Positions 3,481 to 24,225 of a stretch of DNA of 33,567 nt are shown piece by piece. The notes under the pieces are model-generated. The model was given only the letters and a program-made list of their open reading frames with translations, did not search any database and was not told the origin of the DNA. How positions within the stretch are numbered: the first letter of the stretch is position 1; the number at the start of each line of letters is the position of its first letter. Made by a program: the position numbers and the translations under genes. Source of the stretch: Elusimicrobiaceae bacterium (GTDB lineage: Bacteria; Elusimicrobiota; Elusimicrobia; Elusimicrobiales; Elusimicrobiaceae); the NCBI GenBank assembly GCA_024405075.1, contig JAKSPG010000001.1, positions 1 to 33,567 on the forward strand, read 5' to 3'.

Positions 3481-3482
3481 CA

Positions 3483-3523
3483 AAATTCACACGGTGAGTG
3501 TAGTTCGGGTGGCTAAATGCTTA
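3483..3523 (+). repeat. Junction J0: right-arm-only half copy of the cassette repeat (attR-like)
   Basis: acacggtgagtgtagttcgggtggctaaatgctta aligns without gaps to J4 atacggagtgcgtagtttgggtagcaggatgctaa. Its left side (aaattcacacgg) matches the tRNA flank (aaattcatacgg), not the repeat's left arm. Confidence 0.72.
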
Positions 3524-4471
3524 TTCTTTTGCTCCGTAAGATTTGAGAAGTTGAACTATTTCTTCATTTTTGGTTAATTGCAGGATGGTTTTACCTTCTT
3601 CATCAGTTGTATTGGGTTCAGCCCCAGCGGCCAATAATGCTTCAACAGCTTCTGCATCAGGCATAAAAACTGACACCCACCACAAAGCAGAATATCCTTC
3701 TTGTTTATGTTTGACATTTGGGTCTGCTCCGGCTGCCAACAATGCTTTTACTATTTCCGCTGTATCGCCTGCATTGTATTCATTCGGATATAAAAGAGCC
3801 TCAGAAATAGCTTCTTTATCACTTATTCCGGATGCTAACAACGTTTTAACTACTTCTGTAAATCCTAAATTGCTGGCTTCTTTAAGTGCACGTCCGTTTG
3901 CGGTTGCTCCCGCATTTAACAAAAGTTCCATAACTTCACTTATATCCTTATCTGATTCCTCAGCGGAATTGTCTGAATATAACACTTTATCCACTATGAT
4001 TTGTTCTAATTCTTCTTTTGAAACGTCAATGCCCGCATCTAATAAAACCTTTACAGCATATTGATTTTTATCCCGGCACGCTTCTAAAAAAGCCTCTTTT
4101 AGCTTTTGCTGAGTAACATTTTTGCCAGAAGAGGTTATCCACTTTTTAAGTTCACGGGCTTCTTCTTTATGTTCTTCGCTGAGTAGGGTATGCCAAGGAA
4201 AGGGTTTCCCGTTTTCATCTACTGGTAGCATATTTCCTTTTCCTTCCTTGATTTGTTTAATCATAGGGGCTTTTAAGTCGGCATCTATTCTGTTTTTTAA
4301 TTCAGTAATATTATTTGGGACAACTGTTTTTTCTGTTTCAGCAACCTGTGTTGGACTGGACAGGTTTATTCCCTGTTTTGCTTTATCAAAGGTAATACCT
4401 TCAGTATCTTTATCTGTATTGCACGCTGACAAAGTTAATAAAATGATACTACCTAATAAAAATTTACGCAT
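3521..4471 (-). CDS. Ankyrin-repeat lipoprotein
   Basis: Start re-set to ATG 4471 (GAGG RBS; MRKFLLGSIILLTLSA|C lipobox). Ankyrin motifs VKVLLDAG, VKALLAAGADPN, GYSALWW, LLAAGAEPN, GKTIL. Confidence 0.88.
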   Translation of the reverse strand: MRKFLLGSIILLTLSACNTDKDTEGITFDKAKQGINLSSPTQVAETEKTVVPNNITELKNRIDADLKAPMIKQIKEGKGNMLPVDENGKPFPWHTLLSEEHKEEARELKKWITSSGKNVTQQKLKEAFLEACRDKNQYAVKVLLDAGIDVSKEELEQIIVDKVLYSDNSAEESDKDISEVMELLLNAGATANGRALKEASNLGFTEVVKTLLASGISDKEAISEALLYPNEYNAGDTAEIVKALLAAGADPNVKHKQEGYSALWWVSVFMPDAEAVEALLAAGAEPNTTDEEGKTILQLTKNEEIVQLLKSYGAKE

Positions 4472-4521
4472 AAGGTTCCTCTCATCTGATATATTCCTAT
4501 TATAAAACATTTTACTTCGTA

Positions 4522-4719
4522 CTTGCACGACTTCCTACCCAACCTGGTCAGCATAAAACGGGAATATTTACCAAAACGCGCCTAAACCCACCAAAATTCC
4601 CCTACTATCAGTGGTTCATAAAAAAATCCCCGTCGGGAGTTAATCCTAACGGGGATTTATGCTGAAAATTGAAAACTAAAATACGGAGGTTGTAGTTTCC
4701 CTAGCACTATGCTGATTTT
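4522..4719 (+). repeat. Junction J1: full ~200-bp cassette repeat
   Basis: gcacgacttcctacc...gtcagcataaaa...aaaaaatccccgtcgg-loop-aacggggatttatgctgaaaattgaaaactaaaatacggag..tagttt..ctagcactatgctgatttt. Confidence 0.95.
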
Positions 4720-4763
4720 CAAGCAACTAGAACAAGGAGTAGTTTTTTTGTTAAGATAAAGCT

Positions 4764-6083
4764 ATGAAACAAGAGACGAAAGCATTATGCCCCATATGTT
4801 TAAAGACAATTCCCGCTATTAAAGTACAACGGGGAAGTGAAGTGTGGTTGGAAAAAACTTGCCCCGAACACGGCTCCTTTTTGGTACAGATTGCCAAGGA
4901 TGCCGAGCGTTTTTTTGATAAAACATACGATGTAGAAGGCAAACCGTTTCAAGCCATTACTCCGTTTAACGGTAATTGCGGCCCGGATTGTGGTTGGTGC
5001 GATGCGCACAAACAACATATTTGTACAGGGCTAATTGAAATTACAGAGGCGTGTAATTTGGCGTGTCCTATTTGCTATTTTGGCAAAAAGTCCACGCAAC
5101 ATATTACCGTAGAGGAATTTAAAGTCCGGTTGCAAACGCTGCTTACCGCGGAACAGGGCCACTTGGACGTGCTTCAAATCAGCGGTGGCGAATGCTTGAT
5201 TCACCCACAATTCAAAGAGATTTTGCAAGAATCCTTGCACGCGGATATCGGACGGATTTTGGTCAATACAAATGGTTTAAGATTGCTTACTGATACAGAT
5301 ACCTTTGATTTAATTAAGCAGCATAAAGACCGGGTAGAAATTTATTTGCAGTTTGATGGATTTGATGATGAAGTATATAAAACCCTGCGCGGAAAATCCT
5401 TGTTAACACAAAAACAAGAAATTCTAAAACAATTAAACGTGGCCGAGATAAAAACTTGTTTAGCGGTTACCGTTTATCAAGAAAACTTAAAAGAAATTCC
5501 GGCCATTTTGAAATTGGCGGTTGAATTAAAACATATTTCCGGCATTACATTTCAGCGTTTAACTAAAGTGGGCAGTGCAGCGGGAACGGAAATCCCGTCG
5601 GTTATGCAAGAAGATATTTTGCTAGCAATTGCTAATAGCGGATACATGAAATATAAAGATTTAATTCCTTTGCCGTGTTCGCATGAAAATTGCACCAGTT
5701 TGGGTTTTTTGTTTTGCCAAGGCGATAAAGTATATTCTTTGGGAGATTATATAGACTATTCAAAATGCAAGACCCAACTTTCCAACCGCATTGCGTTTGA
5801 TAAAACGATTTTAGACTATATGCAAAAGAACGTTTGCAAATGTTTTGTGGGGAAAGTACTGGGCGATAATTTTATGTTGGACAAATTGCAAGAATTTGCT
5901 CAAGGGAACGGCTCTTCTTACAAAGACATGAAAATCGTGCGCATTATTGTCAAGAATTTTATGGATGCAGACACATTTGATTGGCAACGTGCCCAGAAAT
6001 GTTGTACAGGAGTAAGCGTTGGGAACGGAAAAGTAATCCCATTTTGTGTACATAACGTATTAAAAGGAAAAATAATATGGTAG
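4764..6083 (+). CDS. Radical SAM protein (family with N-terminal CPxC...CPEHG; MoaA-like superfamily)
   Basis: CxxxCxxC = CNLACPIC; SGGEC; NTNG; C-terminal CC...IPFC. Confidence 0.92.
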   Translation: MKQETKALCPICLKTIPAIKVQRGSEVWLEKTCPEHGSFLVQIAKDAERFFDKTYDVEGKPFQAITPFNGNCGPDCGWCDAHKQHICTGLIEITEACNLACPICYFGKKSTQHITVEEFKVRLQTLLTAEQGHLDVLQISGGECLIHPQFKEILQESLHADIGRILVNTNGLRLLTDTDTFDLIKQHKDRVEIYLQFDGFDDEVYKTLRGKSLLTQKQEILKQLNVAEIKTCLAVTVYQENLKEIPAILKLAVELKHISGITFQRLTKVGSAAGTEIPSVMQEDILLAIANSGYMKYKDLIPLPCSHENCTSLGFLFCQGDKVYSLGDYIDYSKCKTQLSNRIAFDKTILDYMQKNVCKCFVGKVLGDNFMLDKLQEFAQGNGSSYKDMKIVRIIVKNFMDADTFDWQRAQKCCTGVSVGNGKVIPFCVHNVLKGKIIW

Positions 6084-6295
6084 AAGAAAACACATCTCAA
6101 ACACCCCAAGAAATTACGCAACAACCTTTACCTCCAACTTCTAATTTGTCGGCTGGCCAAACCGAAAAAGTGGGAAAACCTTATTCTGCTAAAAAACAGA
6201 TTGGAATTGTGCTACTTATTTTGTTGGGAGTAGTAATTGGGTTGCCCTTTTTATTATTTATGACTTGCTTGGGTATAGCCGCTATTACAGGTTAA
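6077..6295 (+). CDS. Small single-TM protein with a Cys near the C-terminus
   Basis: Overlaps the rSAM stop; AAAGGA RBS; P/Q/T-rich N-terminus, hydrophobic helix, ending LLFMTCLGIAAITG. Confidence 0.7.
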   Translation: MVEENTSQTPQEITQQPLPPTSNLSAGQTEKVGKPYSAKKQIGIVLLILLGVVIGLPFLLFMTCLGIAAITG

Positions 6296-6303
6296 TACTT
6301 ACT

Positions 6304-6939
6304 ATGTGGGCTTACGCGATTTGTTCTGCTATTGGTTTGATTGCCGGGGGGATAGTGGCATGGAAATTACAAATGCCGCATCCTCCGCAACGGGTACGCT
6401 TGCCCATTTATGTATGCGCTTTTATCGGGGCTATTTTAGGAGCCAAAATACCCATTTGGCTTTCTTATGGTTTGCACGGTTATATTGTGCAAGGTAAAAG
6501 CGTTATGGGCGGTATATTAGGCGCGTTTCTAGCAATTAACTTGTACAAAACATGTAGCGGCAACGCGGGCGGTTTTGGCGGCCGGTTTGTAATTCCACTG
6601 GCCGTGGCGGTTGGTTTTGGAAAAATCGGATGCTACTTAAACGGTTGTTGTGGCGGAACACTTTTTATTCCTGTGCAACTAGTAGAAAGTATATTCCAGT
6701 TTAGTATGGCAGTCGGTTTATATTTTTTCTACCGGCGTACACAACGGCCGGATTTGTTGTTCCCCATCTATTTGTTTGCCTATTTGTTGATGCGTTTGGT
6801 GATTGAATTTTGGCGGATAGAACCCCGTGTATGGAGTAATTTTACGGTGTACCAATGGCTGGCAGTTGCTTTTATCCCAGTATGTATTTTAATTCTTTGG
6901 AGGCGTACGCATGATAACATGGTTACTGCGGACAAGTGA
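6304..6939 (+). CDS. Prolipoprotein diacylglyceryl transferase (Lgt)-family protein, divergent
   Basis: GAILGAK, GKSVMGGILG, GKIGCYLNGCCGG, PVQLVE, RLVIEFWR correspond to Lgt-family motifs; ATG 6304 preferred over TTG 6265. Confidence 0.85.
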   Translation: MWAYAICSAIGLIAGGIVAWKLQMPHPPQRVRLPIYVCAFIGAILGAKIPIWLSYGLHGYIVQGKSVMGGILGAFLAINLYKTCSGNAGGFGGRFVIPLAVAVGFGKIGCYLNGCCGGTLFIPVQLVESIFQFSMAVGLYFFYRRTQRPDLLFPIYLFAYLLMRLVIEFWRIEPRVWSNFTVYQWLAVAFIPVCILILWRRTHDNMVTADK

Positions 6940-7894
6940 GCATGCTCAAAATCCTATTCTTTTTCTAATTGGAATTATACTTGTTTATGTAACGGGTGTC
7001 GCGCTTTTGGCGGCCGTTGTATGGAAATTTTATGAGTATCGCCAAATCTCCCAAAAACTGGACAAACAACGGAGTCACTTTTTTTCTACGCGAGAGATGT
7101 TGTTGTTAGTGTTGTTGCTTTTCCCATGTTGGATTGGCTCTTGGGGACAAGTAGCCCTACCGTTAATTCCTTATTATTTCTTCTTTGTATTGGGCAGTAT
7201 TGGGCTTTTATTTGCGACCGGATGGCATTTGTGGGCAAAACTGAATATCGGACACTTATGGTCCGATGGAATAGAAATTAAACAAAACCATCCCTTACGT
7301 ACCACAGGGGCTTATGCGTTGGCGCGCCACCCGATGTATGCATCTTTGTTGCTTTGGTGTTGGTGCGGAAGTTTGATAATGTCCAATGCTCTTACATTAG
7401 TGCTAGTGAGTGCGCTATTTTTACCTTTGATGGTTCATCGTGCCAAAGCAGAAGAACAGTGGCTGTTGCAAAAAAATCCGGACTATGCGTTGTACCGAAA
7501 TAATGTGCGGATGATGAGTGTTACATTGTCGGGTGGGTGGAGTGTGGCAGTACGGTTGGTATTAGCACTTGCTTTATGTTGTTTTACGGCAACAAATCAA
7601 ATTACACTGACCGTTTTGGGGGGCCTAGTATTTATTCACTTGTATTTAGGATATAGTCTAAAGCCGGAAAAAACGGCGTTTTCGTACCGTTCCAAATCGG
7701 GCATGATGACGGTATTTGGGCTATTGGGGTTATATATACACCCGGCTTTTTTCTATTTTTTTTATGTAATCGTTGCCATGTGTTTATATGGATTAAAATG
7801 GAATTGTCCGTGCATGTGGGTGTATGAGAAATACCACGGCTGTCCTTGTTTTATGCTAATAAAACAATGCCGGCTCAGCCTAGCAAAAAAGTAA
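6911..7894 (+). CDS. Isoprenylcysteine carboxylmethyltransferase / PEMT-family membrane methyltransferase with a C-terminal extension
   Basis: HPLRTTGAYALARHPMY and RAKAEEQWL..DYALYR motifs; multi-TM; Cys-rich tail. Confidence 0.82.
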   Translation: MITWLLRTSEHAQNPILFLIGIILVYVTGVALLAAVVWKFYEYRQISQKLDKQRSHFFSTREMLLLVLLLFPCWIGSWGQVALPLIPYYFFFVLGSIGLLFATGWHLWAKLNIGHLWSDGIEIKQNHPLRTTGAYALARHPMYASLLLWCWCGSLIMSNALTLVLVSALFLPLMVHRAKAEEQWLLQKNPDYALYRNNVRMMSVTLSGGWSVAVRLVLALALCCFTATNQITLTVLGGLVFIHLYLGYSLKPEKTAFSYRSKSGMMTVFGLLGLYIHPAFFYFFYVIVAMCLYGLKWNCPCMWVYEKYHGCPCFMLIKQCRLSLAKK

Positions 7895-7920
7895 TAAGCA
7901 ACAAAATACTTAAGAATGTT

Positions 7921-8118
7921 CTTGCGCGACTTCCTACCCAGTCCCGTCAGCATAAAAAGAGAATATTTACCAAAAAGCACGAAAACCCACCAAAATTCCC
8001 CTACTATCAGTGGCGCATAAAAAAATCCCCGTCGGAGCGAAACTCTAACGGGGATATATGCTTAAAATCTAAAACTAAAATACGGTGGGGGTAGTTTTGC
8101 TAGCACTATGCTGATTTT
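7921..8118 (+). repeat. Junction J2: full cassette repeat
   Basis: Colinear with J1; core aaaactaaaatacggtgggggtagttttgctagcactatgctgatttt. Confidence 0.95.
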
Positions 8119-8179
8119 AAAACAGGCAATAAACAGGCAGAAAATGGCACTTTTTCCTTTCAAAAACAGAAATAGTTTT

Positions 8180-8797
8180 TTATAATGAACAAGCATATTC
8201 TCCGCTCCCTGAATAGGCACTCGGGTTATTACATAATGCTTGGCAAAGTGCCACTTTTTTAGCGGTAACACTCATGGAAGGGACTTTGCACTGACACGAC
8301 TGTGTTGGAGACAAATCACACTGTAACCATATCGTGGTGCCATAATTATAATAGCCGACATATCTGTTAGCGGGTCTGTAATATAAGTACCATTTGGGAG
8401 GAAGCGGAGGGATATCAATATCTAACACACTGCTTAATACGGAAGGGTCTGAAAGATTTTCAAGATTGGCGGGTGGATATTCACCCGAGGCCAACTTGTA
8501 CTGTTCTAACGCGCTGTAAATTTTTTTAATATTCCAAACCATTTGTGAGTATTTAACTTTATCTACGGTTTTTTGATATTGCGGCACGGCCACGGCGGCC
8601 AAAATGCCAATGATCAGCACGACTACCAACAGTTCTATCAGGGTAAAACCGGAGCGAAGCGGAGCCCTGAAAGTGCTTTTATTCAGGGCCTCTTTCTCAA
8701 TCCTAGAATAACTGGATACTAAAACACGTTCCGCATAATTATTTTCGTTTACAACATTTTGCGTATAACTGCGCCCAGTATTTTTTGTATACGTCAT
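8180..8797 (-). CDS. Type IV pilin-like protein with an unusually long (~50 aa) leader
   Basis: SG|[26 protein letters not shown]; ATG 8797 follows GGAGG RBS (8810-8806). Confidence 0.9.
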   Translation of the reverse strand: MTYTKNTGRSYTQNVVNENNYAERVLVSSYSRIEKEALNKSTFRAPLRSGFTLIELLVVVLIIGILAAVAVPQYQKTVDKVKYSQMVWNIKKIYSALEQYKLASGEYPPANLENLSDPSVLSSVLDIDIPPLPPKWYLYYRPANRYVGYYNYGTTIWLQCDLSPTQSCQCKVPSMSVTAKKVALCQALCNNPSAYSGSGEYACSL

Positions 8798-8847
8798 AAT
8801 TATAACCTCCATTTATTTTTATTTAATTTACTTCAAATTTTCCTAAT

Positions 8848-9005
8848 AAAAAAGACGACTGCTATTTGTGAGAAGCCAATCACACAAATAACAGCCGCCT
8901 ACCCATTATTGATACAAATCAGATAATAGGATTATTCGCTAACAGAACCGGGTTATAAGACCGCTTCCATTAGCAATAGCGACTATTTTTGGTTTGGCTT
9001 CTCCA
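8848..9005 (-). promoter_or_regulatory. Structured 5' leader RNA (three hairpins, the last an intrinsic terminator) upstream of the cassette pilin
   Basis: GGCGGCUGUUAUUUGUG/CACAAAUAGCAGUCGUC 17-bp stem with 3 G-U pairs followed by U6; further stems at ~8902-8930 and ~8938-8975; upstream GAGAAGCCAA (9003-8994) is complementary to the terminator loop region (8879-8870). Confidence 0.7.
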
Positions 9006-9167
9006 TTGTTTATACAATAGTGATGTCTAAAATAATTTAGACAACCAAAAACAGTACCAATTCAAATTTTGTATAAGCCGTTTCGGGGCTTATGGTATTA
9101 CAAAATATCTCCTGTATAAAATCTATATTTTCATGTTAGCATATTTATTTTCTATTTTGTGCGAGCC

Positions 9168-9368
9168 CTTGCGCGCGACTTCCTACCCAACCCGGTCAGC
9201 ATAAAATTTGAATATTTACCAAAAAGCACAAAAACCCACCAAATTTCCCATGCTATCAGTGGTGCATACAAAAATCCCCGTCGGGCGCGTTGCCTAACGG
9301 GGATTTATGCTGAAAATTGAAAACTAAAATACGGAGCTTTTAGTTCTGCTAGCACTATGCTGATTTTT
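9168..9368 (+). repeat. Junction J3: full cassette repeat
   Basis: Colinear with J1/J2; core aaaactaaaatacggagcttttagttctgctagcactatgctgatttt. Confidence 0.95.
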
Positions 9369-9370
9369 CA

Positions 9371-9650
9371 AACAGGCTGAAAACAGGCAAAAATTGATAG
9401 TTTTTTCTTTCCAAAGCGGTAGAAAAGCGGTTGAAAATAGCATTTTTTAATAAATTTGAAGCGGGGAGAAAGCGGCGAGGGTTGTTCCCAAACAGGTGAC
9501 AAACAGGCGAGGGATGCTATTTCCCTGCTAAACAGGGTAAATACAGCGAAAAAACAAGGAATTTATTTTAAATTTTAAAGATTTTCTGTATTGGCACCCC
9601 ATATAAATTTACCCAATTTCCTAAAATCCGGAACAGGGAACAAGCAGGGA
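9371..9650 (+). repeat. Cluster of paired AACAGG/AAGCGG hexamers with 11-bp period
   Basis: Pairs start at 9371/9382, 9414/9425, 9459/9470, 9491/9502, 9531/9542 (degenerate) and 9632/9643 (degenerate). Confidence 0.7.
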
Positions 9651-9652
9651 AT

Positions 9653-10702
9653 TTATTTGTTTAATTTGTATTTCCTTGCTTTTTTGGAGGGATCTGCTAC
9701 CACCACAAAACCCTGTCGTACCCACTTTTGAAGTAACTGTCTAGCCGTTCTGCCCGCGAAGTGGAACAGTTCTTCTACATCTTTGGAAGTGATAAATTCG
9801 CTCTTTTCAAACAGAATGAGAGCTTGTTTTTGGCGGGCATCTAGCGCGTTAATGGTTTTACTTCGGTCCTTTTCGGTGCCCTGTAACTGTAAATGTTTTT
9901 GCGCACTTTGGAATGAATAGAGCATACCGGACACAAAGAATTCAATCCAACCCGTTATATCGGCCTCGGCCCGGCCCATATAGTAATTGTGTGAGGGGCC
10001 CACCGCAAGTGCATTATAGTAATCTTGGATGTGCTGATAGTAATACTCTTCCAAATTGTAAATACCTTTAAGGTCATACCCGCCTTGGTGTAAAATAAGC
10101 GTAGTCAAAATACGGGCCGTTCTGCCGTTCCCGTCATAATACGGGTGTATGGTTACAAACTGGTAATGGACAATAGCTGCCACAATAGGGATAGGTAACG
10201 TGTGAGTGCTTTCGTTAATCCATTCCACAAGCCCGGTCATTAGTGGGCCTACATCTTTGGCTTCCGGTGGCATATATACAATCGTACCCGTTTGGGCATC
10301 TACTACCGAGTTTTGTTCCGTTCGGTACGCGGAAGGAGTGTTTTTGCCAATAATCAGGCCATGTAAGAGTTGGATATTTGACTCCGTAACAATATGCTTT
10401 TTAGCGAGTACAGCCACTTCATCCAAAGCATTAAAATACTCTTTGACTTCCTTTTCATCCCGTTCCCGGCCTTGAATAGCTTGCCCTTTTAATACCTCGC
10501 GTACTTCCCGCTCTGTTAAGCGGTTTCCCTCAATTACAGTAGAAGAGTGCGTGGTAACAAGGCGGGAGGTTGCCTTAAGCCCGACAAGTACCCGCGGCGT
10601 TAATGGCATATCCTTGACCTGCTCTTTGATTTGGTCTATTTTATAGAGCTTTTCAAGGATAGATTGGGTAATTTGGTAATTCGGATAAAATGTTATTGGC
10701 AT
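9653..10702 (-). CDS. Fic family protein with a C-terminal winged HTH
   Basis: Fic motif HPYYDGNGRTAR; SSTVIEGN; C-terminal ITSKDVEELF..GRTARQLLQKWVRQG. Start re-set to ATG 10702 after AGGAG (10717-10713). Confidence 0.93.
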   Translation of the reverse strand: MPITFYPNYQITQSILEKLYKIDQIKEQVKDMPLTPRVLVGLKATSRLVTTHSSTVIEGNRLTEREVREVLKGQAIQGRERDEKEVKEYFNALDEVAVLAKKHIVTESNIQLLHGLIIGKNTPSAYRTEQNSVVDAQTGTIVYMPPEAKDVGPLMTGLVEWINESTHTLPIPIVAAIVHYQFVTIHPYYDGNGRTARILTTLILHQGGYDLKGIYNLEEYYYQHIQDYYNALAVGPSHNYYMGRAEADITGWIEFFVSGMLYSFQSAQKHLQLQGTEKDRSKTINALDARQKQALILFEKSEFITSKDVEELFHFAGRTARQLLQKWVRQGFVVVADPSKKARKYKLNK

Positions 10703-10757
10703 ATTATTGGCGCTCCTATATGCCATTATTATGCCATTAAATAGGCGGAAATGTCAA
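10693..10757 (-). promoter_or_regulatory. fic promoter with a repeat-type operator
   Basis: TTGACA (10757-10752), 18 bp, TGn-CATAAT (10733-10728), overlapped by tatgccatta x2 and oppositely oriented ttattggc x2. Confidence 0.55.
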
Positions 10758-10774
10758 GAATTAAAATAAAATAC

Positions 10775-10803
10775 TTGACAAATAAATAATTTATTAGTAA
10801 ACT
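10775..10803 (+). promoter_or_regulatory. marR-operon promoter with a palindromic operator; probably leaderless
   Basis: TTGACA-17bp-TAAACT; palindrome aataaa-taa-tttatt (10781-10795) in the spacer; ATG at 10810 with no RBS. Confidence 0.65.
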
Positions 10804-10809
10804 ATTTAT

Positions 10810-11298: not shown

Positions 11299-11299
11299 T

Positions 11300-14710: not shown

Positions 14711-14718
14711 GATTTATT

Positions 14719-15702: not shown

Positions 15703-16789
15703 AGTGCTATTTACAGGGGCGCGGGCGCCTATTGTAGCGTACATGGCTCGCTTGCTTGGGCAAGTGGGATATGAAGTGTGCGCCGCAGATAGCACATACG
15801 CAAGTGTTTGCGTAGCGAGCTGTTTTGTGCATAAATTTATTAAACTTCCTAAACCAACTGATTCCAATTACAGAGATACGTTGTGCAAGATAGTACAAAA
15901 GTACCAGATTGACTATATAATTCCCACCTGTGAAGAAATTTTTTACCTTGCTCAATTCCGGCAAGAATTATCCCAACATGCTCGCGTATTTTGCGAGGAA
16001 GCCCCAAAACTAATTTCGTTACATGACAAATGGAGTTTTTATAATTATTTATGTAAGGTCGGTTTAAGAACACCCGCTACCCAACTAGCAGACCAAGCAG
16101 ACGAAACGTGGGAAGAACCGCATATCATTAAGCCGCGCTTTTCTCGTTTTGCCAGTAAGGTAAGATGTGAAACGAAATTGCCCAAGACAATGGCAGATAA
16201 CCGTCATATCGTGCAAGAGTTTATCAACGGAAAACAAATTTGTTCGTATGCTTTTTGCAAAGAGGGGAAAGTACTTGCCCAATGTGTGTATGAGCCGGTT
16301 CTAGCGGCTGGCAAAGGAGCCGGGATTTTGCTTAAGCGTATCTCCCATCCGCAAGCGGAAGAAATAACAGCGCGTATTAGCCAAGATTTTTGTTTTACAG
16401 GGCAAATTGCCTTTGATTTTATAGAAAAGGATAACAATGAATTATATGTTATAGAGTGTAACCCGCGTGCGACGAATGGACTTGGTTTTTTAGGCGCTGA
16501 TTTTGTGCGGTTGTTATCTAATGAAAGAACAGTTAAAAAGGATAACCCTTCTGTGCTGATTTCCCACTTGGCGGTTTGGTGTTATGGGGTACTACAACCT
16601 CTTAAAACCCTGCAAGCCCACAGATTGTGCGTTGGAGCGGTTGATTTTGTATCGTTTAAACAAGACCCCCTTGCGTGGCTAGCGCAAATCCCGATAGTAA
16701 TTTGGTGGCTATTCAAAGGACTTTGGTGTGGCGGGCCGATGGCGGCCAGCACCGTAGATATTGAGTTTAACGGAGCCAATTATTTATGA
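15692..16789 (+). CDS. ATP-grasp domain protein
   Basis: IIPTCEE, LHDK, IIKP, VQEFING, QIAFDF, IECNPR. Confidence 0.85.
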   Translation: MSTKVLFTGARAPIVAYMARLLGQVGYEVCAADSTYASVCVASCFVHKFIKLPKPTDSNYRDTLCKIVQKYQIDYIIPTCEEIFYLAQFRQELSQHARVFCEEAPKLISLHDKWSFYNYLCKVGLRTPATQLADQADETWEEPHIIKPRFSRFASKVRCETKLPKTMADNRHIVQEFINGKQICSYAFCKEGKVLAQCVYEPVLAAGKGAGILLKRISHPQAEEITARISQDFCFTGQIAFDFIEKDNNELYVIECNPRATNGLGFLGADFVRLLSNERTVKKDNPSVLISHLAVWCYGVLQPLKTLQAHRLCVGAVDFVSFKQDPLAWLAQIPIVIWWLFKGLWCGGPMAASTVDIEFNGANYL

Positions 16790-17757
16790 AAATACTTGTA
16801 ACAGGGGCAACCGGTTTTTTGGGTAAGCGGACTTGTGAAATCTTAGCAAGCCAAGGCCATCAAGTGGTGGGGATTGGTCGCAATCGCGCTAAAGCCCCCG
16901 CTGGAATTAAATTTTTTCAGGTCGATTTAACCTATCTCTTACCGCCGGAAGTATGGCAAGGAGTGGAAGCTGTCGTCCACTGTGCGGCAAAAAGTTCCGT
17001 ATGGGGCAAGTACGATGATTTTTATCAAAACAATGTAGTGGCTACTCGGTTATTAGCCAAGCAAGCTTTACACCAAGGGGTCAAACTCTTTGTGCATATT
17101 TCATCTACTAGCGTATATTTTGATTCCAAAAATCACCAACAAATTACCGAGGAAATGCCACTCCCCAAACATAAGGCTAATCATTATGCCGAAACTAAAT
17201 TTTTGGCAGAACAAGAAATGCTGAAATTTGTCCGTAAAGGGTTACCGGCTATTATTTTGCGCCCGCGTGCCATATTCGGGGTGGGAGACAGCGCTTTGCT
17301 ACCGCGTCTTTTGAAAGTAAATAATGAAAAATTCTTCCCGGAATTTACTAATAATGGGGGTCCTCTAACCGATATAACGTACGTGGATAACGTGGTAGAA
17401 GCCATTACATGTGCGTTGCAAGCTCCAACATCCTGCTACGGGCAAATTTATAATATTACCAACGGGGAAAGTGTTTTAATCCAGCAAACAGTTAAACGGT
17501 TAGTGGAAAATTTAGGATATACTTATCACGGGAAACGGGTTCCGTTTGCTTTAGCCAAAATGTATGCTTATTTTTTAGAAAAATGGCATCAGTTATTTTG
17601 CCCTAAAACAGAGCCGCCTTTTACCGTATCTAGTATTAGTTTAATTGCTAGGGACCAAACATTTTGTATTGGCAAAGCACGCCGGGAACTGGGTTATCAA
17701 CCTAAAATAACTGTTGCACAGGGGCTAGCGTATGTTACCCAACATTGGAAACATTAA
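16786..17757 (+). CDS. NAD-dependent epimerase/dehydratase (3-beta-HSD-like extended SDR)
   Basis: TGATGFLG; YAETK; LRPRAIFG. Confidence 0.92.
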   Translation: MKILVTGATGFLGKRTCEILASQGHQVVGIGRNRAKAPAGIKFFQVDLTYLLPPEVWQGVEAVVHCAAKSSVWGKYDDFYQNNVVATRLLAKQALHQGVKLFVHISSTSVYFDSKNHQQITEEMPLPKHKANHYAETKFLAEQEMLKFVRKGLPAIILRPRAIFGVGDSALLPRLLKVNNEKFFPEFTNNGGPLTDITYVDNVVEAITCALQAPTSCYGQIYNITNGESVLIQQTVKRLVENLGYTYHGKRVPFALAKMYAYFLEKWHQLFCPKTEPPFTVSSISLIARDQTFCIGKARRELGYQPKITVAQGLAYVTQHWKH

Positions 17758-18514
17758 AATATTATCTTGCGGTTATTGCACACAACTGGAATGGCTTGTT
17801 TCCAAACAAGGATATTGGAAAAGGGTGCGTTTTCCAGCACGTTGTTTTCTAGCGCCTTTGCAAAATGGATATTTGTTATTCGATAGTGGTTATGGTGCTG
17901 ACGTAGGCCACATTATGCAATCATGGCCAGCTTGGTTGTATAAAACACTTATCCCGGTAACAATACCCCCTAATCAAACTGCAGCTATGCAACTAAGTGC
18001 GTTGGGGATATCCAAGGATGATATAAAATATATTTTTATTTCCCACTTCCACGCAGACCATATTGGGGGATTGCGAGATTTCCCGAAGGCTCGGTTTATT
18101 TGTTCACAAGAGGGATACCAAGCTCTTAAAAAGCTTTCCAAGTTTCGTCAGGTTTGCAAAGGATTTGTGAGCGAGTTTTTACCGGATGATTTTGAACAAC
18201 GAGTGATATTTGTAGATACAAATAATGCCCAAAAATTAAATAATTTAACAGTATCTCCTTTGGCAGATTTACCGAATATGTATGCAATAGAACTCCCCGG
18301 TCATGCCAAGGGCCAGTTGGGGTTATGGCTTAAAAACGAAAATATTTTACTGGCCGCCGATGCAGCGTGGCGGCACACTAATTTAAAACCCGGGGCAGAG
18401 CCGTCGTCTATCGCTTTGCTGCTTTGTGAAGATAAAATACGTTATTTACAAACTCTTTCTGCTTTAACCAAGTGGGCGGAAGTACAAATTTTATTCACGC
18501 ACGAGGAAGAATAA
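17732..18514 (+). CDS. MBL-fold metallo-hydrolase
   Basis: SHFHADHIGG; LPGHAKG; AADA. Confidence 0.9.
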   Translation: MLPNIGNIKILSCGYCTQLEWLVSKQGYWKRVRFPARCFLAPLQNGYLLFDSGYGADVGHIMQSWPAWLYKTLIPVTIPPNQTAAMQLSALGISKDDIKYIFISHFHADHIGGLRDFPKARFICSQEGYQALKKLSKFRQVCKGFVSEFLPDDFEQRVIFVDTNNAQKLNNLTVSPLADLPNMYAIELPGHAKGQLGLWLKNENILLAADAAWRHTNLKPGAEPSSIALLLCEDKIRYLQTLSALTKWAEVQILFTHEEE

Positions 18515-19788
18515 TGTTTTATAAACTTTTAACATTTTTTTATTATTTGCGGGCCAAATATTGGTTGCGATTTTCTTCTCGTGCTAAGTTGGAAAGATAC
18601 CAACAAAAGCAACTCAAACGTATTTTAGGGTATATGAAAAAGCATAACCCCTTTTATCACACTAAAAATCTTTCTGAGAGAGATTTGCCTTCTTGGCCTT
18701 GTATGGATAAATACAATTTGATGACTCATTTCGACGAGCTTAATACGGCGCATATTCCTCTTGCGCAAGCGCAGCGCATCGCCCAACAGGCCGAAGTAAC
18801 GCGTGATTTTACCCCCAAAATAGGTAAATATAGCGTGGGGCTTTCTTCAGGCACTTCAGGGATAAGAGGCGTGTTTTTAATTAGCCCGCGTGAGCAAGCT
18901 CAATGGAGCGGGACCATTTTGGCTAAAATGTTACCTAAATCTATTTTTTGTAAACAGAAAATTGCATTTTTCTTGCGAGCTGATAATAACTTGTATGAAA
19001 GTGTAAAGAGCCATATTATACAGTTTAAATTTTTTGATTTGAAAAAACCGTTTGAACAACATATTTCTATTTTGAAAAATTTTCAGCCCGATATTTTGGT
19101 TGCACCTCCTACGGTACTGTATCTATTGGCCCAAGCGCAAGAACAAGAAAAATTACATATTGCCCCAATAAAAATTATTTCGGTGGCAGATGTGCTGTAT
19201 GATGATGTGAAACAATATATAAGCCGTATTTTTAAACAAAAAGTACATCAAATTTACCAAGCTACCGAAGGTCTTATTGCTTGTACTTGTGCGCAAGGGC
19301 ATTTGCACTTAAACGAAGAGTTGATGCTTGTTCAGCAAAAAAACTTAGAGAAAAACTCGGGCCGTTTTATACCGGTATTAACTGATTTTAACCGTACCAC
19401 ACAACCGATTATTCGCTATGAACTGAATGATATTTTGACATTGAGTTCCCAGCCTTGCTTTTGTGGTAACCCTTCGTTGGTAATTGAGCGCATAGAAGGA
19501 CGGTGTGATGATGTGCTATATGCTCCGGGTAACCCATTGCACCCGGTGTTTCCGGATTTTATTGTACGGCTTGTACTTCAATATTTGCCGTTTGTGGGTA
19601 ATTTCCAATTTCGGCAAGTTTCTCTAACAAAGGCTCAGTTGGCTTTGCCGGTTGATATGAAATGCCCACCAGAATTACTCACGCAACTAAAACAGGTTTT
19701 ACCCATACAAATTGATGTAACGGTGTGGCGGCCCACTACGGATTTGACCCATAAACAAAAGCGTGTAGTGCGGGAGTTTTCGGTATGA
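18514..19788 (+). CDS. Putative adenylate-forming enzyme (F390 synthetase / PaaK-like)
   Basis: GLSSGTSG, IYQATEG, IIRYELND, IEGR; ATG 18514 in a TAATG overlap with the MBL stop. Confidence 0.88.
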   Translation: MFYKLLTFFYYLRAKYWLRFSSRAKLERYQQKQLKRILGYMKKHNPFYHTKNLSERDLPSWPCMDKYNLMTHFDELNTAHIPLAQAQRIAQQAEVTRDFTPKIGKYSVGLSSGTSGIRGVFLISPREQAQWSGTILAKMLPKSIFCKQKIAFFLRADNNLYESVKSHIIQFKFFDLKKPFEQHISILKNFQPDILVAPPTVLYLLAQAQEQEKLHIAPIKIISVADVLYDDVKQYISRIFKQKVHQIYQATEGLIACTCAQGHLHLNEELMLVQQKNLEKNSGRFIPVLTDFNRTTQPIIRYELNDILTLSSQPCFCGNPSLVIERIEGRCDDVLYAPGNPLHPVFPDFIVRLVLQYLPFVGNFQFRQVSLTKAQLALPVDMKCPPELLTQLKQVLPIQIDVTVWRPTTDLTHKQKRVVREFSV

Positions 19789-20914
19789 TACGTTTTATCA
19801 GTCCGCAACAATATGCTACTTATACGCCCCCGGATAATCCCCAAGCACGTGCGGTTTATCAGTATGTAAAACCTTTTATAGAAAAGGGTAGCCGGGCTCT
19901 CATCCATAACGTAGATACCGAGGTATGGCTTGCTCAAATTGATGATATTCTATTACCGGTAACCAAAAACACAGCCCAGTATGAAAATTCCTATGTGTGT
20001 TCGTTGTATACGCATTATATTTCGTATTGTAAAGAAGAGATGAATATCGTTGGGATAGGGGGCCTCAAATATTTATTTGCGCCGCTATTAGGACTGTTGG
20101 GCTGGATGGCAAACGAGCTCAAATGAACAAAGTCGTTATTCTAAACAATTTTATACTTTCTACCAATTTATATGTTCCGGTATTTAAGGCACAATATCAA
20201 GAGTTGGTTCGGGCAGCTCAAAAACAATTCCCAGAATTTTTAATTGCTTTTCGCTCGCTAAACGAGGATTATAACGCCATTGCATTAGCTGATCTAACGT
20301 CTTTGGATGGTCATAAAATTGCCTCCCGTCGTGTTTACTTATTAAAACCCGAAAATATCCGTTCTTGCGCTAAAAAATTATTGCGCAAAGATGAAAACAC
20401 AAAACAAGCAAAAAACTACTGCTGGGCCAGCGCATCACTAGCGGATGTGCCGGATATAAATCAATTTCACGAAGCATTATATTTGAAGAAATATTCTCGT
20501 CTTAATCCACAATTTACCCAGTTATTTTATCGTCATATTTTGCAGAATGCATTATTTCGGGTACGAATGCTAAGAAAAGGGGTTAAAAACAGAGGGGTGT
20601 GTGGTCTTTTTGTGCATGGGAGCGGGGTTACGGCTCCCGTTTTCGGATACGCGCCTGATAGTACAACGCAAGATGCCTTGTATCGTGTTTTATCTTTGTG
20701 GGGATGGGAGATGATCCAAGATAAGGAACCGCTTAATATCAATTTTTCGTCCGGTGTATCTCTTTTTAAACGAGCCCGCGGCGCAGTAGGACGCACGGAA
20801 TATACTGTGCTATTTTATAACCATTTATCTATTGGGAGAAGATGGTTTTGGAAATGGTTCGCCGGGTTTATAAATCGGGTTGCTTTGCCCATTATGATTT
20901 GGAAGAAGTACTAG
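19785..20914 (+). pseudogene. Probable single GNAT-like/hypothetical protein split by a 1-nt frameshift at ~20112 (ORFs 19785-20126 and 20123-20914)
   Basis: Adding one A in gcAAAcgagctcaaatg gives ..WMAKRAQMNKVVILNN.. in one frame; contains YVCS, NNxxLSTNLY, LYLKKYSRLNPQFT, NFSSG..FKRARG. Two ATGA-coupled genes is the alternative reading. Confidence 0.55.
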
Positions 20915-21809
20915 GCAAGGAACGAAAGGATTGCCCTGTAATTTTCACCCATTTTTGGTTACTGCATAACCAATGTCCCGTAATATTCATTTCATTAATT
21001 TTATCGTAATTTAGTAGGGCTGGCCCGTTGAGCGGTTTAGCCAAAAATTGATAGAGCCGAATTGCAGCGCCGGCTAAACGGGGGTTTATGTTTAGAAAAC
21101 GGACGTTGCGGTTAGCTACCGCTTGAATCAGTTGTTTCCATGTATAAGCGTTTGGATCTGCCACAAAAAAGGTTTGATTTAATACTTCTGCTTTCTGAAT
21201 CGCTATTACGATAGCATTCGTGAGATCTTCCACATGAATTACACTATATAAAACAGTAGGGGTTGGATCTATAAAAAATCCATATTTTAAGAAAGGCGCT
21301 AAATCACTTAGGCCGCTAGCGTTTGGACCATACACAATGGGCGGCCGAAGAATGACAAAAGGTGTTTTGAGGTGGGATAGTTCTTTTTCTGCTGCTAATT
21401 TAGTCCGGCCATAATCGGCAACCGGATTACAAGGGAAGGATTCATCTATGGGCTGCTTAGTAGGGGCCGGGCCCGCCGCCGCTTGGCTGGAGATATGAAT
21501 AAATCGTTTTAGCGTAGGAGTTTTATTAGCTGCTTGTATTAATGAGCAGGTTGGTAATACAGTACCGTTAAAGTACCCTTCTGCTGTGAAACTAAAAAGA
21601 CATCCGGTTAAATTAACTAAATAATCTATTCCTTGTAATGCTTGCGTTAAGGAAGAAATATCTTGATAATCAACCACGAAAGTAGGGAACGGATTTTGTT
21701 GTTTTGCTTTACGTGATAAAATCCGCACCTGAAAATTATGTTGAGTTAGTTTCGCGGCTAAATGTTGACCAATAAACCCACTTCCACCCGCAATGGCTAC
21801 TGTAAACAT
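20892..21809 (-). CDS. NAD-dependent epimerase/dehydratase family protein
   Basis: GGSGFIG; ISSQAAAG; YGRTK; LRPPIVYGP. Confidence 0.9.
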   Translation of the reverse strand: MFTVAIAGGSGFIGQHLAAKLTQHNFQVRILSRKAKQQNPFPTFVVDYQDISSLTQALQGIDYLVNLTGCLFSFTAEGYFNGTVLPTCSLIQAANKTPTLKRFIHISSQAAAGPAPTKQPIDESFPCNPVADYGRTKLAAEKELSHLKTPFVILRPPIVYGPNASGLSDLAPFLKYGFFIDPTPTVLYSVIHVEDLTNAIVIAIQKAEVLNQTFFVADPNAYTWKQLIQAVANRNVRFLNINPRLAGAAIRLYQFLAKPLNGPALLNYDKINEMNITGHWLCSNQKWVKITGQSFRSLPSTSSKS

Positions 21810-21884
21810 ATATGTATCATATCATTTCTTGAAATAACTTGACTTCTAGGCCTAGAAGAAGCGTGAATGCGTAGATATTTATAA

Positions 21885-22083
21885 GCAAGTGCACCACTTC
21901 CTATCTAGTCCGGTCAGCATAAAGAGAGAAGATTTTGCCGAAAATCTCACAAACACGCAAGAAACCGCGTGCTCAAAGTGGTGCACAAAAAAATCCCCGT
22001 CGGAGCTAAACTCTAACGGGGATTTATGCTAATAATTTAAAACTAAAATACGGAGTGCGTAGTTTGGGTAGCAGGATGCTAAC
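21885..22083 (+). repeat. Junction J4: full, more diverged cassette repeat
   Basis: acttcctatc...gtcagcataaa...aaaaaatccccgtcggag..ctctaacggggatttatgct...aaaactaaaatacggagtgcgtagtttgggtagcaggatgct. Confidence 0.92.
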
Positions 22084-22097
22084 ATTCTAAATAAAGT

Positions 22098-22124
22098 AAA
22101 AACCCTACATTTCTGCAGGGTTTT
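22098..22124 (-). terminator. Terminator of the ECF sigma operon
   Basis: aaaaccct...agggtttt hairpin ~12 bp after the stop at 22136. Confidence 0.65.
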
Positions 22125-22135
22125 AAGTATAGGAG

Positions 22136-22945
22136 TTATTTGTCGGTTTTTTCTAGCACGTAATAGGCGGGTTTTTGACCACGGAAAACATAATCACCGC
22201 TTTTCCATTCAAAGAACATGTACTCTTTACCACCTATCTTTTTAATTTCATAAGCCGAGTTTGTCTTGTCCCCTTTGTGTAAGATATGGCCTTTTGTCCA
22301 CGTAATAGCGGGTGACATGGGCGTCTTGCCGTTGGGTTGCAAAGTCAATTTTTTCAAATACAAATCCCCTTTCCAAAATTTTTCTCCGGGTTTGAATTGG
22401 CTAGGCTCAAAGACGAAATCAACCGATTTCCACTTGCCAACTGCTTGAGGGTCATTTTTGAAAGGCATATTGATATTATCCGTGCGCAAATTAGACGTTT
22501 TGCGAAGTACATAATACGAGGGTTTTAACCCCAAACATGTATAATCGCCGCTTTTCCATTCAAAGAATAAGTAATCCTGGCCATTGATTTTCTTAATCTC
22601 ATAAGCGGAATCGGTTTTGTCGCCTTGGTGTAAAATATGGCCTTTGGTCCACGTAAAACCGGAATTGACCACCTTGCCTTCTGGTAAGAAGGTCAGTTCT
22701 TGCAGGAAAAGGTCGCCACGGAAAGATTTTTGAGAAGGATTAAAATCTTCTATCTCATCCACAAAATCTACCGATACCCAATTGCCTTGCAGTTGGGCGT
22801 CATCCACAAACGGAAGATTGACTTCATCTTGCTTGGGATTTATTTTTGCATTTGGACCAAAAGCTGTCTCACAATTCGGGTTAGCCATGGCCGAAAGGAC
22901 AAGTCCTGTACAGAAAACAATTAACGTCATCAATTTACGAGACAT
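22136..22945 (-). CDS. Secreted protein with two tandem ~115-aa repeats
   Basis: Signal peptide (..SAMA); duplicated WxSVDFV..WTKGHILHxGDKTxSAYEIKKIxGxxYxFFEWKSGDY..KPxYYVL. Confidence 0.82.
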   Translation of the reverse strand: MSRKLMTLIVFCTGLVLSAMANPNCETAFGPNAKINPKQDEVNLPFVDDAQLQGNWVSVDFVDEIEDFNPSQKSFRGDLFLQELTFLPEGKVVNSGFTWTKGHILHQGDKTDSAYEIKKINGQDYLFFEWKSGDYTCLGLKPSYYVLRKTSNLRTDNINMPFKNDPQAVGKWKSVDFVFEPSQFKPGEKFWKGDLYLKKLTLQPNGKTPMSPAITWTKGHILHKGDKTNSAYEIKKIGGKEYMFFEWKSGDYVFRGQKPAYYVLEKTDK

Positions 22946-22954
22946 AAGCGCTCC

Positions 22955-23266
22955 TTATTGGAAATGAATATAATCGGGTTGGCTTTCAAGCCCCCGGGGG
23001 CCGCATTCGCCAAAATTCTGCGCTACGTATATATTCGTGGCATGTAAAGCAGACGGCCCTAACAATTCTACTGGGTGGGGCTGACGTACATACAATCCTA
23101 TCCCTAGAAGTACAAGCAAACTTCCCACGGCTAATGCCCATTGAAAACGCCGCGGGGCATGGCAGGTCAATTTCCGTTCCAAGACCATTCTTACACGTTC
23201 TTTTGTCGTAGTACTGGGTTGGAAACCGCTCTCTAACACCGTGTTCAATTTGTTCTTGTATTTCAT
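22955..23266 (-). CDS. Putative single-TM anti-sigma factor
   Basis: Overlaps the ECF sigma stop by 4 nt; one TM helix; function inferred from position. Confidence 0.6.
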   Translation of the reverse strand: MKYKNKLNTVLESGFQPSTTTKERVRMVLERKLTCHAPRRFQWALAVGSLLVLLGIGLYVRQPHPVELLGPSALHATNIYVAQNFGECGPRGLESQPDYIHFQ

Positions 23267-23760
23267 AGCTCATTTCCTAATTTGAATTTTAATTTTTTAA
23301 CGGCCCGGTGTAAAAGGACACCTACATTACTTTGTGAGAGCCCTGTAATAGCGGCAATATCAGTCTGTTTAAGACGTTGATAATAATGCAGGTTGATAAG
23401 CTCTCGCTCTTGGCTTGTCAACACCTCTAAAGCAGCTTGCAGTTCTTCCTCCAAAGAGGTCCGTTCCAACGTGCGGGCCGGATTATCATCCATCGGTAAA
23501 TTCTCTTCTTGCTGTGGTGTAAACGAAAACCAAGAACGGATTTTCTTACGCCGGGAAAAATCTACCGTTACACTATGGGCAATGGTAAAAATCCACGCCT
23601 CAATAGGGGATTTATCTGCATTGTATGAATTGAACTTTCTATACAATTTTTCAAAAATACACGCCGTTAAATCTTCCGCTTCCGTATCCGTCTCACAGCG
23701 GTAACGTGCATAGTTGTAAACACGTACAAAGAAAGTTTCATACAATTCTTCAAACTGCAT
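23263..23760 (-). CDS. ECF RNA polymerase sigma factor
   Basis: AEDL, AWIFTIA (region 2); ERELINLHY..IAAITGLSQSNVGVLLHRA (region 4); AAGGAG RBS. Confidence 0.93.
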   Translation of the reverse strand: MQFEELYETFFVRVYNYARYRCETDTEAEDLTACIFEKLYRKFNSYNADKSPIEAWIFTIAHSVTVDFSRRKKIRSWFSFTPQQEENLPMDDNPARTLERTSLEEELQAALEVLTSQERELINLHYYQRLKQTDIAAITGLSQSNVGVLLHRAVKKLKFKLGNEL

Positions 23761-23793
23761 AAGTGCTCCTTTTTTAGGTCCGTCACTAGTTAA

Positions 23794-23819
23794 TACGCAG
23801 CACCTAACAAAATATTACA
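23794..23819 (-). promoter_or_regulatory. ECF-type autoregulatory promoter
   Basis: TGTAAT-N16-CGTA upstream of the ECF gene, resembling the SigW/SigX-type consensus. Confidence 0.6.
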
Positions 23820-23850
23820 AAATTCTGTATAGAATTGGCCGTTACTAATC

Positions 23851-24020
23851 GCAAGTGCGCGACTTCCTACCTGACCTTGTCAGCATAAAAACAAAAGATT
23901 TGCCACAAATCCCAATAATTCGCCAAAAACCGCATGCTGAAAGTCGTTCATAAAAAAATCCCCGTCGGGAATTAACCTCAACGGGGATTTATGCTGAAAA
24001 TTGAAAACTAAAATACGGAG
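23851..24020 (+). repeat. Junction J5: left-arm-only copy fused to a tRNA 3'-end duplicate (attL-like)
   Basis: Colinear with J1-J4 up to ..gaaaactaaaatacggag, then switches to tRNA sequence tcgacgaga instead of the tagttt..agcactatgct arm. Confidence 0.93.
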
Positions 24021-24029
24021 TCGACGAGA
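24013..24029 (-). repeat. 17-bp direct repeat of the tRNA-Asp 3' end
   Basis: atacggagtcgacgaga at 24013-24029 and 24223-24239. Confidence 0.95.
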
Positions 24030-24221: not shown

Positions 24222-24225
24222 CATA

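Follow-up and report, generated by a model that had tools for sequence, protein, structure and literature searches.

The window analyzed here is a 33,567-nucleotide stretch of contig JAKSPG010000001.1 from the metagenome-assembled genome (MAG) of an Elusimicrobiaceae bacterium (GCA_024405075.1); between positions 3483 and 24029 it carries five gene-bearing units in tandem, separated by copies of a direct repeat. We read this array as a stack of five recombinase-less units that a large serine recombinase (LSR), supplied by a passing or neighboring complete element, likely excises and inserts at the CGG of tRNA-Asp and tRNA-Ser 3′ ends and of copies of those ends, and we assign this reading a probability of roughly 0.8. 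Its observed basis comprises arms common to all members, breakpoints that fall at CGG, sites both filled and vacant, a family that ranges from autonomous members through partly to fully deleted ones, and the occurrence of the same recombinase-less unit at different slots, at different tRNAs, and in different species. Action of the recombinase in trans, and thus mobilization by a helper, is what we infer from the comparison of genomes.

Repeat finding, reading of the sequence, and profile searches place ACGG cores at 3491, 4683, 8082, 9331, 22050, and 24015, so that units 1–5 measure 1192, 3399, 1249, 12719, and 1965 bp from core to core. An earlier note on this DNA, made from the letters alone, had described four full and two half copies of the repeat bounding five units of these lengths; the repeat finder, which reported five long direct repeats at spacings of 3399, 1249, 12719, and 1965 bp, and the profiles bear this out. 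Junctions J1–J4 carry both a left arm of about 168 bp (P) and a right arm of about 41 bp (P′), while J0 consists of P′ alone and J5 of P alone:

3456–3490, no strand assigned: chromosomal half of J0, a terminator-like hairpin plus AAATTCAC; 73% identical over 40 bp to the flank left of the empty tRNA-Asp site (24189–24228) and 43–47% to J1–J5
3491–3533, plus strand: J0, core ACGG at 3491–3494 and short arm P′, the outer left end of the array (right-arm profile E = 1e-7)
4519–4726, plus strand: J1, long arm P (4519–4682), core 4683–4686, and P′
7918–8125, plus strand: J2, P, core 8082–8085, and P′
9168–9374, plus strand: J3, P, core 9331–9334, and P′
21885–22093, plus strand: J4, P, core 22050–22053, and P′
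23851–24018, plus strand: J5, P and core 24015–24018; P opens with TAATCGCAAG, like the sequence directly after the LSR stop codon in autonomous elements
24019–24224, no strand assigned: tRNA-linked repeat, recognized from sequence as a tRNA-Asp 3′-end copy, a hairpin-rich spacer, and a terminator; it supplies the target actually used
24225–24301, minus strand: tRNA-Asp(GTC) (ARAGORN, Rfam)

The P arms of J1–J5 are 73.5–86.4% identical in pairwise comparison, against a median of 44.9% and a 95th percentile of 48.7% for random window pairs, and BLAST E-values among the junction repeats range from 1e-25 to 1e-67. Within the assembly of the window (G000; 260 contigs, 1.42 Mb, 88.7% complete), the repeat is confined to the window's contig. 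Mean GC content is 38–42% in the units versus 47–49% in the flanks. A Pfam scan of 32 window proteins agrees with the gene modules first proposed from the sequence and returned no recombinase, transposase, Rep, or relaxase family; the claim that no gene crosses a core holds for annotated genes, though short unannotated open reading frames (ORFs) of 82–95 aa do cross. The repeat alignment contains a short terminator hairpin and A-tracts, and a comparison with Rfam gave no family for the repeat at gathering score.

The array had been placed at tRNA-Asp, which is correct as to neighborhood. However, the right side of J5 is not the tRNA gene; it is a copy of the tRNA-Asp 3′ end heading a tRNA-linked repeat of about 210 bp (24015–24224), and the tRNA's own site, 210 bp away with its core at 24225–24228, is unoccupied. 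The arrangement of the J0 chromosomal half recurs at the empty site of G063. Related copies of the tRNA-linked repeat lie on five other contigs of the window's assembly (C76, C183, C230, C44, and C85), and the repeat is uninterrupted in G063, G004, G028, and G093. This repeat (about 200 bp) begins, in many relatives too, with the Asp or Ser version of the host tRNA's 3′ end, contains an inverted copy of the T-arm and hairpins, and closes with a terminator; a further target site arises through it, and in several arrays it stands between units. In the window's assembly, all three 3′ sites of tRNA-Ser (C76, C174, and C207) are unfilled targets that have the same CGG core.

Among relatives, all of them likewise MAGs, the repeat was found in 25 of 36 same-genus genomes and 0 of 24 genomes from other families, and a second query recovered it in 65 of 95 genus genomes. 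Flanks of tRNA-Asp were taken for 87 of 94 matching genomes, most contig-edge cases being left out; in the 82 with at least 700 bp of flank (the window's assembly included), the long arm adjoins tRNA-Asp or its repeat in 38 and is absent from that position in 44. Content varies between relatives. An empty site had been predicted, and such alleles exist: in G063, the closest genome by murB (76.8%), pilin, uninterrupted site, repeat, and tRNA follow one another, and in G066 and G009 tRNA-Asp runs directly to a ferritin gene. Of the earlier proposal, the att-type junctions, serial site-specific loading, variable content, and empty sites are supported; identical content in relatives, insertions or deletions breaking off the core, and cargo-independent scatter of the repeat, any of which would have spoken against it, were not found.

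The relatives also contain what the earlier note had suggested looking for, elements with the same arms that carry an integrase. In these autonomous elements, a DUF2924 gene and an LSR gene stand against the same P arm at tRNA-Asp or tRNA-Ser 3′ ends. Many tRNA-proximal units contain a gene of 127–133 aa, identified as DUF2924, followed by one of about 550 aa with Resolvase and Recombinase domains (PF00239 and PF07508 in Pfam), which terminates at the long arm's distal tip; wherever autonomous units were examined, the LSR abuts that arm or is close to it. The LSR retains invariant catalytic Y-x-R-x-S (including S15) and D-R-L-x-R motifs, and no cysteines appear in the consensus of its zinc-ribbon-like segment. 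Its structural model (mean predicted local distance difference test score of 82) finds Bxb1 and other LSR–DNA complexes as best folds (E = 1e-17) and ends in an extra C-terminal helical region of about 90 residues. An LSR match at least 80% identical over at least 530 aa occurs in 23 of 95 genus genomes. Across phyla, we examined 69 of 80 LSR loci, omitting 11 short matches; a tRNA or tmRNA 3′ end faces the gene within 4 kb downstream in 44 of the 69, and DUF2924 lies upstream in 58. LSR relatives in Gastranaerophilales-type genomes sit at tmRNA (L177, L178, L180, L181, and L183 are loci with tmRNA or other tRNA targets), and alphaproteobacterial relatives at tRNA-Ser, Gln, Ala, and Arg.

DUF2924 itself gave no Foldseek match at E ≤ 0.001; its C-terminal half weakly matches CcrM C-terminal and MPND domains (Z scores of 6.0 and 5.8; root-mean-square deviation 3.3; 58 residues) and its N-terminal half Rho-N/LEM/SAP folds (Z 5.3–4.8). 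No description of DUF2924 function or of the array was found in the literature searched, which lay mostly outside subscription journals. A 181-aa gene without a Pfam family stands between LSR and long arm in the tRNA-proximal units of G069, G031, G080, G071, G087, G107, G099, and G067; elsewhere this spot, a second cargo position, is taken by other genes.

The fetched loci contain 76 complete units, the five of the window included. Fifty-six of them (28 genomes, 665 bp to 12.7 kb) have no trace of LSR or DUF2924, 16 are autonomous and bounded by the same P and P′ arms, and 4 hold relics. Ends rich in ACAGG occur in 11 of the 16 autonomous units versus 3 of the 56 recombinase-less ones. Of 47 units shorter than 2.6 kb, 38 have their arm-adjacent gene pointing away from the long arm, and 12 carry an ankyrin homolog; other cargo includes Sel1, TPR, WG-repeat, and DUF2207 proteins, with no family for 5 of 12. 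Many cassette 5′ regions have TATAAT-type hexamers and an AGGAG putative ribosome-binding site, whose distances to the arm vary.

Seven of the recombinase-less units occur more than once with the same boundaries (nine pairs). A 775-bp unit is 99% identical in G004, where it stands alone at a tRNA-Ser repeat, and in G069 and G074, where it is at the tRNA-Asp repeat, although murB of these genomes is only 68–73% identical. Unit 2 of the window recurs alone between chromosomal halves at tRNA-Ser(tga) in G083 (C27), as a copy of 3398 bp with 96.6% identity and 0 of 45 differences in P′, against 69.9% identity in murB. Unit 5 has a twin in G080 (1962 bp, 89.7%) in a distal slot behind an autonomous element. 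For units 1 and 3 there are relatives with common leaders, among them for unit 3 the related pilin units of G100, G111, and G036 (upstream leader 77–82%), but no same-length twin.

The 10.2-kb operon of unit 4 is 91.5% identical to an LSR-bearing unit of G107 and 92% to a DUF2924-only unit of G027, and over 1.25 kb the unit's fic end matches autonomous units of G006 and G111 at 82–87% identity. The leader that in G107, G103, G111, G006, and others directly precedes DUF2924 is here joined to the long arm, and this leader-to-arm joint is found also in G064 (at both tRNA-Asp and tRNA-Ser) and G020; the deletion joint thus occurs in three species and at both tRNAs. Judged by these comparisons, unit 4 derives by deletion from an autonomous element and keeps the scar of the DUF2924-LSR operon; among the five units, this origin is established for unit 4 alone. 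The idea of non-autonomous units made of arms and cargo is supported, but at least unit 4 is not a primary minimal cassette. Relics of intermediate kind occur in G033, G027, and G099; in G033, the same LSR relic with an internal deletion is found in two units that differ in cargo (91.5% over 733 bp).

Sequencing runs that contain this DNA are gut or fecal metagenomes where recorded; at least one third of the sequence words of 3300–9600 occur in twenty runs from 11 studies (0.95 in X1). X1, the probable source run, was set aside, and 8 of the 22 listed runs were compared, on contigs only. Near-identical contigs cover the unit 2 cargo in all seven non-source runs (7/7), with short pieces at most of units 1 and 3. 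One X2 contig follows unit 2 to position 8088, past the J2 core, continues with 971 other letters, and then enters another long arm, and arms in X3 and X4 run into a tRNA-Ser 3′ end right after the core. A joint of 4716 to 8115 in X5 was considered as an excision product and rejected: its contig is 225 nt long and differs at 15 of 107 letters, and the joint fits two arms, so that it is read as another junction of the family.

The cores located by profile end in CGG in 179 of 182 cases, and the three non-CGG cores were dropped. Since the long-arm profile itself includes ACGG, the evidence that counts comes from the 53 chromosomal left sides, whose last letters are ACGG, GCGG, or TCGG. To the right of the junctions stands P′ in 106 cases, tRNA-Asp or its repeat in 52, tRNA-Ser or its repeat in 20, and an unclassified sequence in one. 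Together P and P′ form the dyad AAAACTA-N6-GG-N6-TAGTTT; centered as it is on GG, it makes this pair the candidate crossover dinucleotide. An outer motif, TGCT, is separated from the inner one by 8 bp in P and by 3 bp in P′. Structural work on LSR–DNA complexes distinguishes attP from attB half-sites by a 5-bp displacement of the outer motif; here the 5-bp shift lies between the element's own two arms, the tRNA halves having no clear motif. By this analogy, internal junctions may resemble attL/attR sites and so remain excisable. The long arm further contains phased A-tracts, ATGCT/AGCAT motifs at three places, and, on the tRNA strand, a hairpin with a T-run after it; the distal motif is missing from 42 of 124 P arms. 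At two junctions (L038 10571, in G027 C27, and L049 10079, in G036 C7), the last 20 bp or so of the long arm alone are kept.

The proposed course of events would be as follows. A circle bearing P × P′ would integrate at a B × tRNA-end site by crossover at the central GG, and the long arm would import an A-tract and hairpin that replace the tRNA terminator. Later circles would enter through either the outer junction or the regenerated P × tRNA-end junction, and the locus would come to read B/P′-(P/P′)n-P/tRNA. Loss of the DUF2924-LSR genes with retention of both arms would leave carriers able to continue capturing cargo, DUF2924 may serve as a DNA-binding helper for excision, and homologous recombination between stacked or incoming copies would also reshuffle the long arm and parts of the cargo.

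Several observations weigh against this account. Neither LSR, resolvase, nor DUF2924 was found in the window's assembly (88.7% complete) by tblastn with three LSRs and three DUF2924 proteins or by three family searches, and none of them was found in the better assemblies G086 (99%), G020, G075, and G008, all of which have arm-bounded units; on these grounds the helper seems to be a visitor rather than a resident. The search for excised circles, also suggested earlier, came back empty: no circle or excision joint from right core back to left core was seen in the X1 contigs, from which rare variants are dropped. The tRNA halves fit the AAAACTA motif poorly. Unit 2 cargo is mosaic relative to G083, with 4 differences in the first 2 kb followed by blocks differing by 10%; the 170-bp arm shows 18–37 differences for 6 of 7 shared units; and the genomes are MAGs, among which kin are not independent.

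Part of this evidence would suit a different account, in which units come and go mainly by homologous recombination on arms or shared cargo, in the style of minimal mobile elements, and the LSR just founds the first unit at an empty site. The long arms are indeed mosaic, as is the cargo of unit 2: linkage between variable sites, with r2 = 0.24 at 1–5 bp, has dropped to 0.02 past 40 bp, and multi-base hairpin alleles are shared by as many as 20 genomes. The sole cassette pair with a short (65-bp) arm, moreover, kept its arm, with 3 differences in 172 positions and 0 in the last 80. Such an account nonetheless offers no left-arm homology for solitary units found at a different tRNA between chromosomal halves (unit 2 in G083, and those in G004 and G076); identity between copies begins at the core, with P′ showing 0–2 differences in 45; and arms about 76% identical have not been homogenized within genomes. 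We therefore regard it as unlikely.

The behavior of the long arm is nevertheless an anomaly that standard att-site recombination does not explain, for the arm does not travel with its cargo. Among 66 long arms (2145 pairs), the best pair reaches no more than 92.9% identity and the median is 75.7%. In 11 pairs whose adjoining 300 bp of cargo are 96–100% identical, several of them having one gene in common and so not independent, the arms are only 74–89% identical, with the first difference 123–166 bp from the core; the arm left of a shared unit differs too in both informative comparisons (2/2). Were crossover confined to the core, the right arm would move together with the cargo, so that a second process acts: most simply repeated homologous recombination, which also left unit 2 mosaic, or else use of a distal site in transfer. 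Near-identical cassettes with different left arms also mean that arm divergence cannot date acquisitions, and the earlier argument from diverged repeats to independent acquisitions falls with it. Concerted evolution of arms within a genome is not seen (77.5% identity within versus 75.7% between genomes). Mutagenesis of the diversity-generating-retroelement type was rejected on inspection, as A-tracts are conserved and multi-base alleles recur, and a hybrid promoter with its −35 element at the arm tip was rejected because −10-like hexamers lie at variable distances. A speculative and rather doubtful extension would make the 170-bp arm an accessory module that can be exchanged and that has a separate recombination point close to the distal end, DUF2924 or the LSR C-terminal domain binding the three ATGCT motifs across the phased A-tracts and each transfer swapping the arm between cassette and recipient.

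It is improbable that each unit arrived autonomous, lost its recombinase in place, and now persists as a dead relic. The decay series would accommodate this, from the relics of G033, G027, and G099 to the scar of unit 4, as would the missing helper in the window's assembly; yet the same deleted forms recur in different species, slots, and tRNAs with cargo 96–99.5% identical, and the single deleted LSR relic in G033 is common to units with different cargo. These data contradict that history for units 2 and 5, though for units 1, 3, and 4 individually it may still hold. The case for a host tyrosine recombinase (XerC/D-like) or an integron-type integrase acting on the repeats is poorer again, and we consider it very improbable: the window's assembly has five Phage_integrase matches, four above cut-off, but all lie on other contigs unlinked to the array, the arm-adjacent gene in the 16 autonomous units is the LSR, and the common core is limited to 3 bp, with a dyad centered on a dinucleotide. 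Chance repeats or mis-assembly, conceivable in a fragmented MAG, are next to negligible given E-values to 1e-67, X1 contigs that repeat the arms with 0 differing letters and in one case bridge the J3 core, and the same layout in many genomes.

The cargo of the five units, together with the traces of deletion in unit 4, is as follows:

3521–4471, minus strand: unit 1, ankyrin-repeat protein with a lipoprotein-like N terminus (Pfam Ank_2, E = 5e-15); ATG at 4471, stop within P′
4764–7894, plus strand: unit 2, radical SAM, Lgt-family, and ICMT-family genes (Pfam)
8180–8812, minus strand: unit 3, type IV pilin-like gene (Pfam N_methyl)
9375–10726, no strand assigned: unit 4, long right end with repeated ACAGG motifs, typical of autonomous elements, then fic (9653–10726, minus strand)
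10810–21809, plus strand: unit 4, marR, Aas-like major facilitator/acyltransferase/acyl-CoA ligase, FabH, ATP-grasp, epimerase, metallo-hydrolase, AMP-binding protein, two unknown genes, and a second epimerase on the minus strand (Pfam)
21835–21885, plus strand: unit 4, deletion scar, the promoter-like leader (which precedes DUF2924 in autonomous elements) fused directly to the long arm
22136–23760, minus strand: unit 5, extracytoplasmic function sigma factor, putative anti-sigma factor, and a 269-aa two-repeat protein (Pfam Sigma70_r2/r4)

The 269-aa protein of unit 5 (22136–22945) contains two internal repeats of about 117 aa and has no Pfam family. Ankyrin cassette genes, here (3521–3533) and in relatives such as L041, terminate in GAKE-stop within the P′ arm, so that coding and att sequence overlap; their middles are just 25–45% identical, resembling an immunity or surface-variation array. 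The marR-aas pair (10810–14710 in the window; also G028 C17, G020 C7, G089 C69, and G090 C31) is followed, depending on the unit, by either the FabH operon or a radical SAM-Lgt-ICMT operon of the unit 2 type, so that units 2 and 4 contain halves of a single lipid-modification locus that are interchangeable. Outside the array, a motif of about 38 bp with a long T-run (3341–3378), upstream of the pilin gene, occurs on more than 40 contigs of the window's assembly and is probably a shared pilin leader.

By analogy, the array works like cis-mobilizable elements (CIMEs), staphylococcal cassette chromosome (SCC)-like cassettes without ccr, and the Dehalococcoides ssrA islands, and not like an integron. 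The architecture is thus already described in kind, as CIME accretion, tandem SCC-like cassettes, and ssrA islands; new here are the enzyme family, very small cassettes at two tRNA targets in several species, and the reshuffled accessory arm. The ssrA islands stand in tandem at the 3′ end of a stable-RNA gene with a 540-aa serine recombinase, DsiB, by an att end and include 15 members without an integration module, read as cis-mobilizable (PMC3146451). They target tmRNA with a six-gene module, and DsiB overlaps attL (PMC3146451), whereas the present elements target tRNA-Asp and tRNA-Ser with a two-gene DUF2924-LSR module, their LSR stops before a non-coding arm of about 170 bp, and their units go down to 665 bp, recombinase-less ones occurring at different targets and in different species.

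SCC and SCCmec composite islands likewise involve a large serine recombinase and tandem att-bounded cassettes without a recombinase; their att sites consist of degenerate half-sites inverted about a central dinucleotide (PMC11470126, PMC13739063), to which the dyad around the candidate GG here would correspond. Ccr has been shown experimentally to excise tandem ccr-less SCC-like cassettes in all combinations (PMC11470126). They differ in their rlmH target, their cassettes of tens of kb, and their CcrAB/CcrC enzymes (PMC11470126, PMC13739063), set against tRNA-Asp and tRNA-Ser ends and DUF2924-LSR here; the SCC descriptions consulted mention no long accessory arm. CIMEs and tandem accretion have been reviewed for streptococcal islands of integrative and conjugative or integrative and mobilizable elements, which mostly use tyrosine integrases and conjugation modules, their serine-recombinase members usually disrupting genes (PMC5704250). 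Here the serine recombinase would restore tRNA 3′ ends; as in CIMEs, the units have no integration or transfer genes and keep the att sites of an autonomous relative, and for unit 4 there is the deletion origin. Prochlorococcus tycheposons likewise stack cargo elements at tRNAs with partial tRNA copies between them, but tyrosine recombinases serve 910 of the 937, many possess genes for replication, and their separators are tRNA fragments (10.1101/2020.12.28.424599) in place of 210-bp element arms.

The integron parallel drawn in the earlier note is loose. Integrons and clusters of attC sites lacking integron-integrases (CALINs) have IntI beside attI, or attC hairpins with R and L boxes, and mostly promoterless cassettes read from a shared Pc. 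The present array resembles them as a series of small, often single-gene units with a preferred orientation and repeated sites. It differs in that neither IntI nor attI is present, no Phage_integrase match lies on the contig, no resident recombinase was found, and the arm-adjacent enzyme of relatives is an LSR; serine chemistry on double-stranded sites is predicted, and many cassettes have their own promoter-like leader.

Taken at the strength given above, the DUF2924-LSR system is probably what drives a hotspot of accessory genes in gut Elusimicrobiaceae, through which ankyrin lipoproteins, pilins, TPR and Sel1 proteins, and lipid-modifying operons are swapped between species about 70% identical in murB. 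If the arm is indeed exchangeable, sub-kilobase single-gene cassettes would circulate between species by a reaction that itself diversifies att arms, and this diversification would protect long stacks from collapse. The widespread tRNA-targeting DUF2924-LSR family, for which no functional study was found in the literature searched, gains from these genomes a precise and testable att site with a 3-bp core, defined arms, and natural empty and filled sites. Enzymes of this family would restore the target gene and accept repeated insertions, properties useful for gene stacking at a conserved site.

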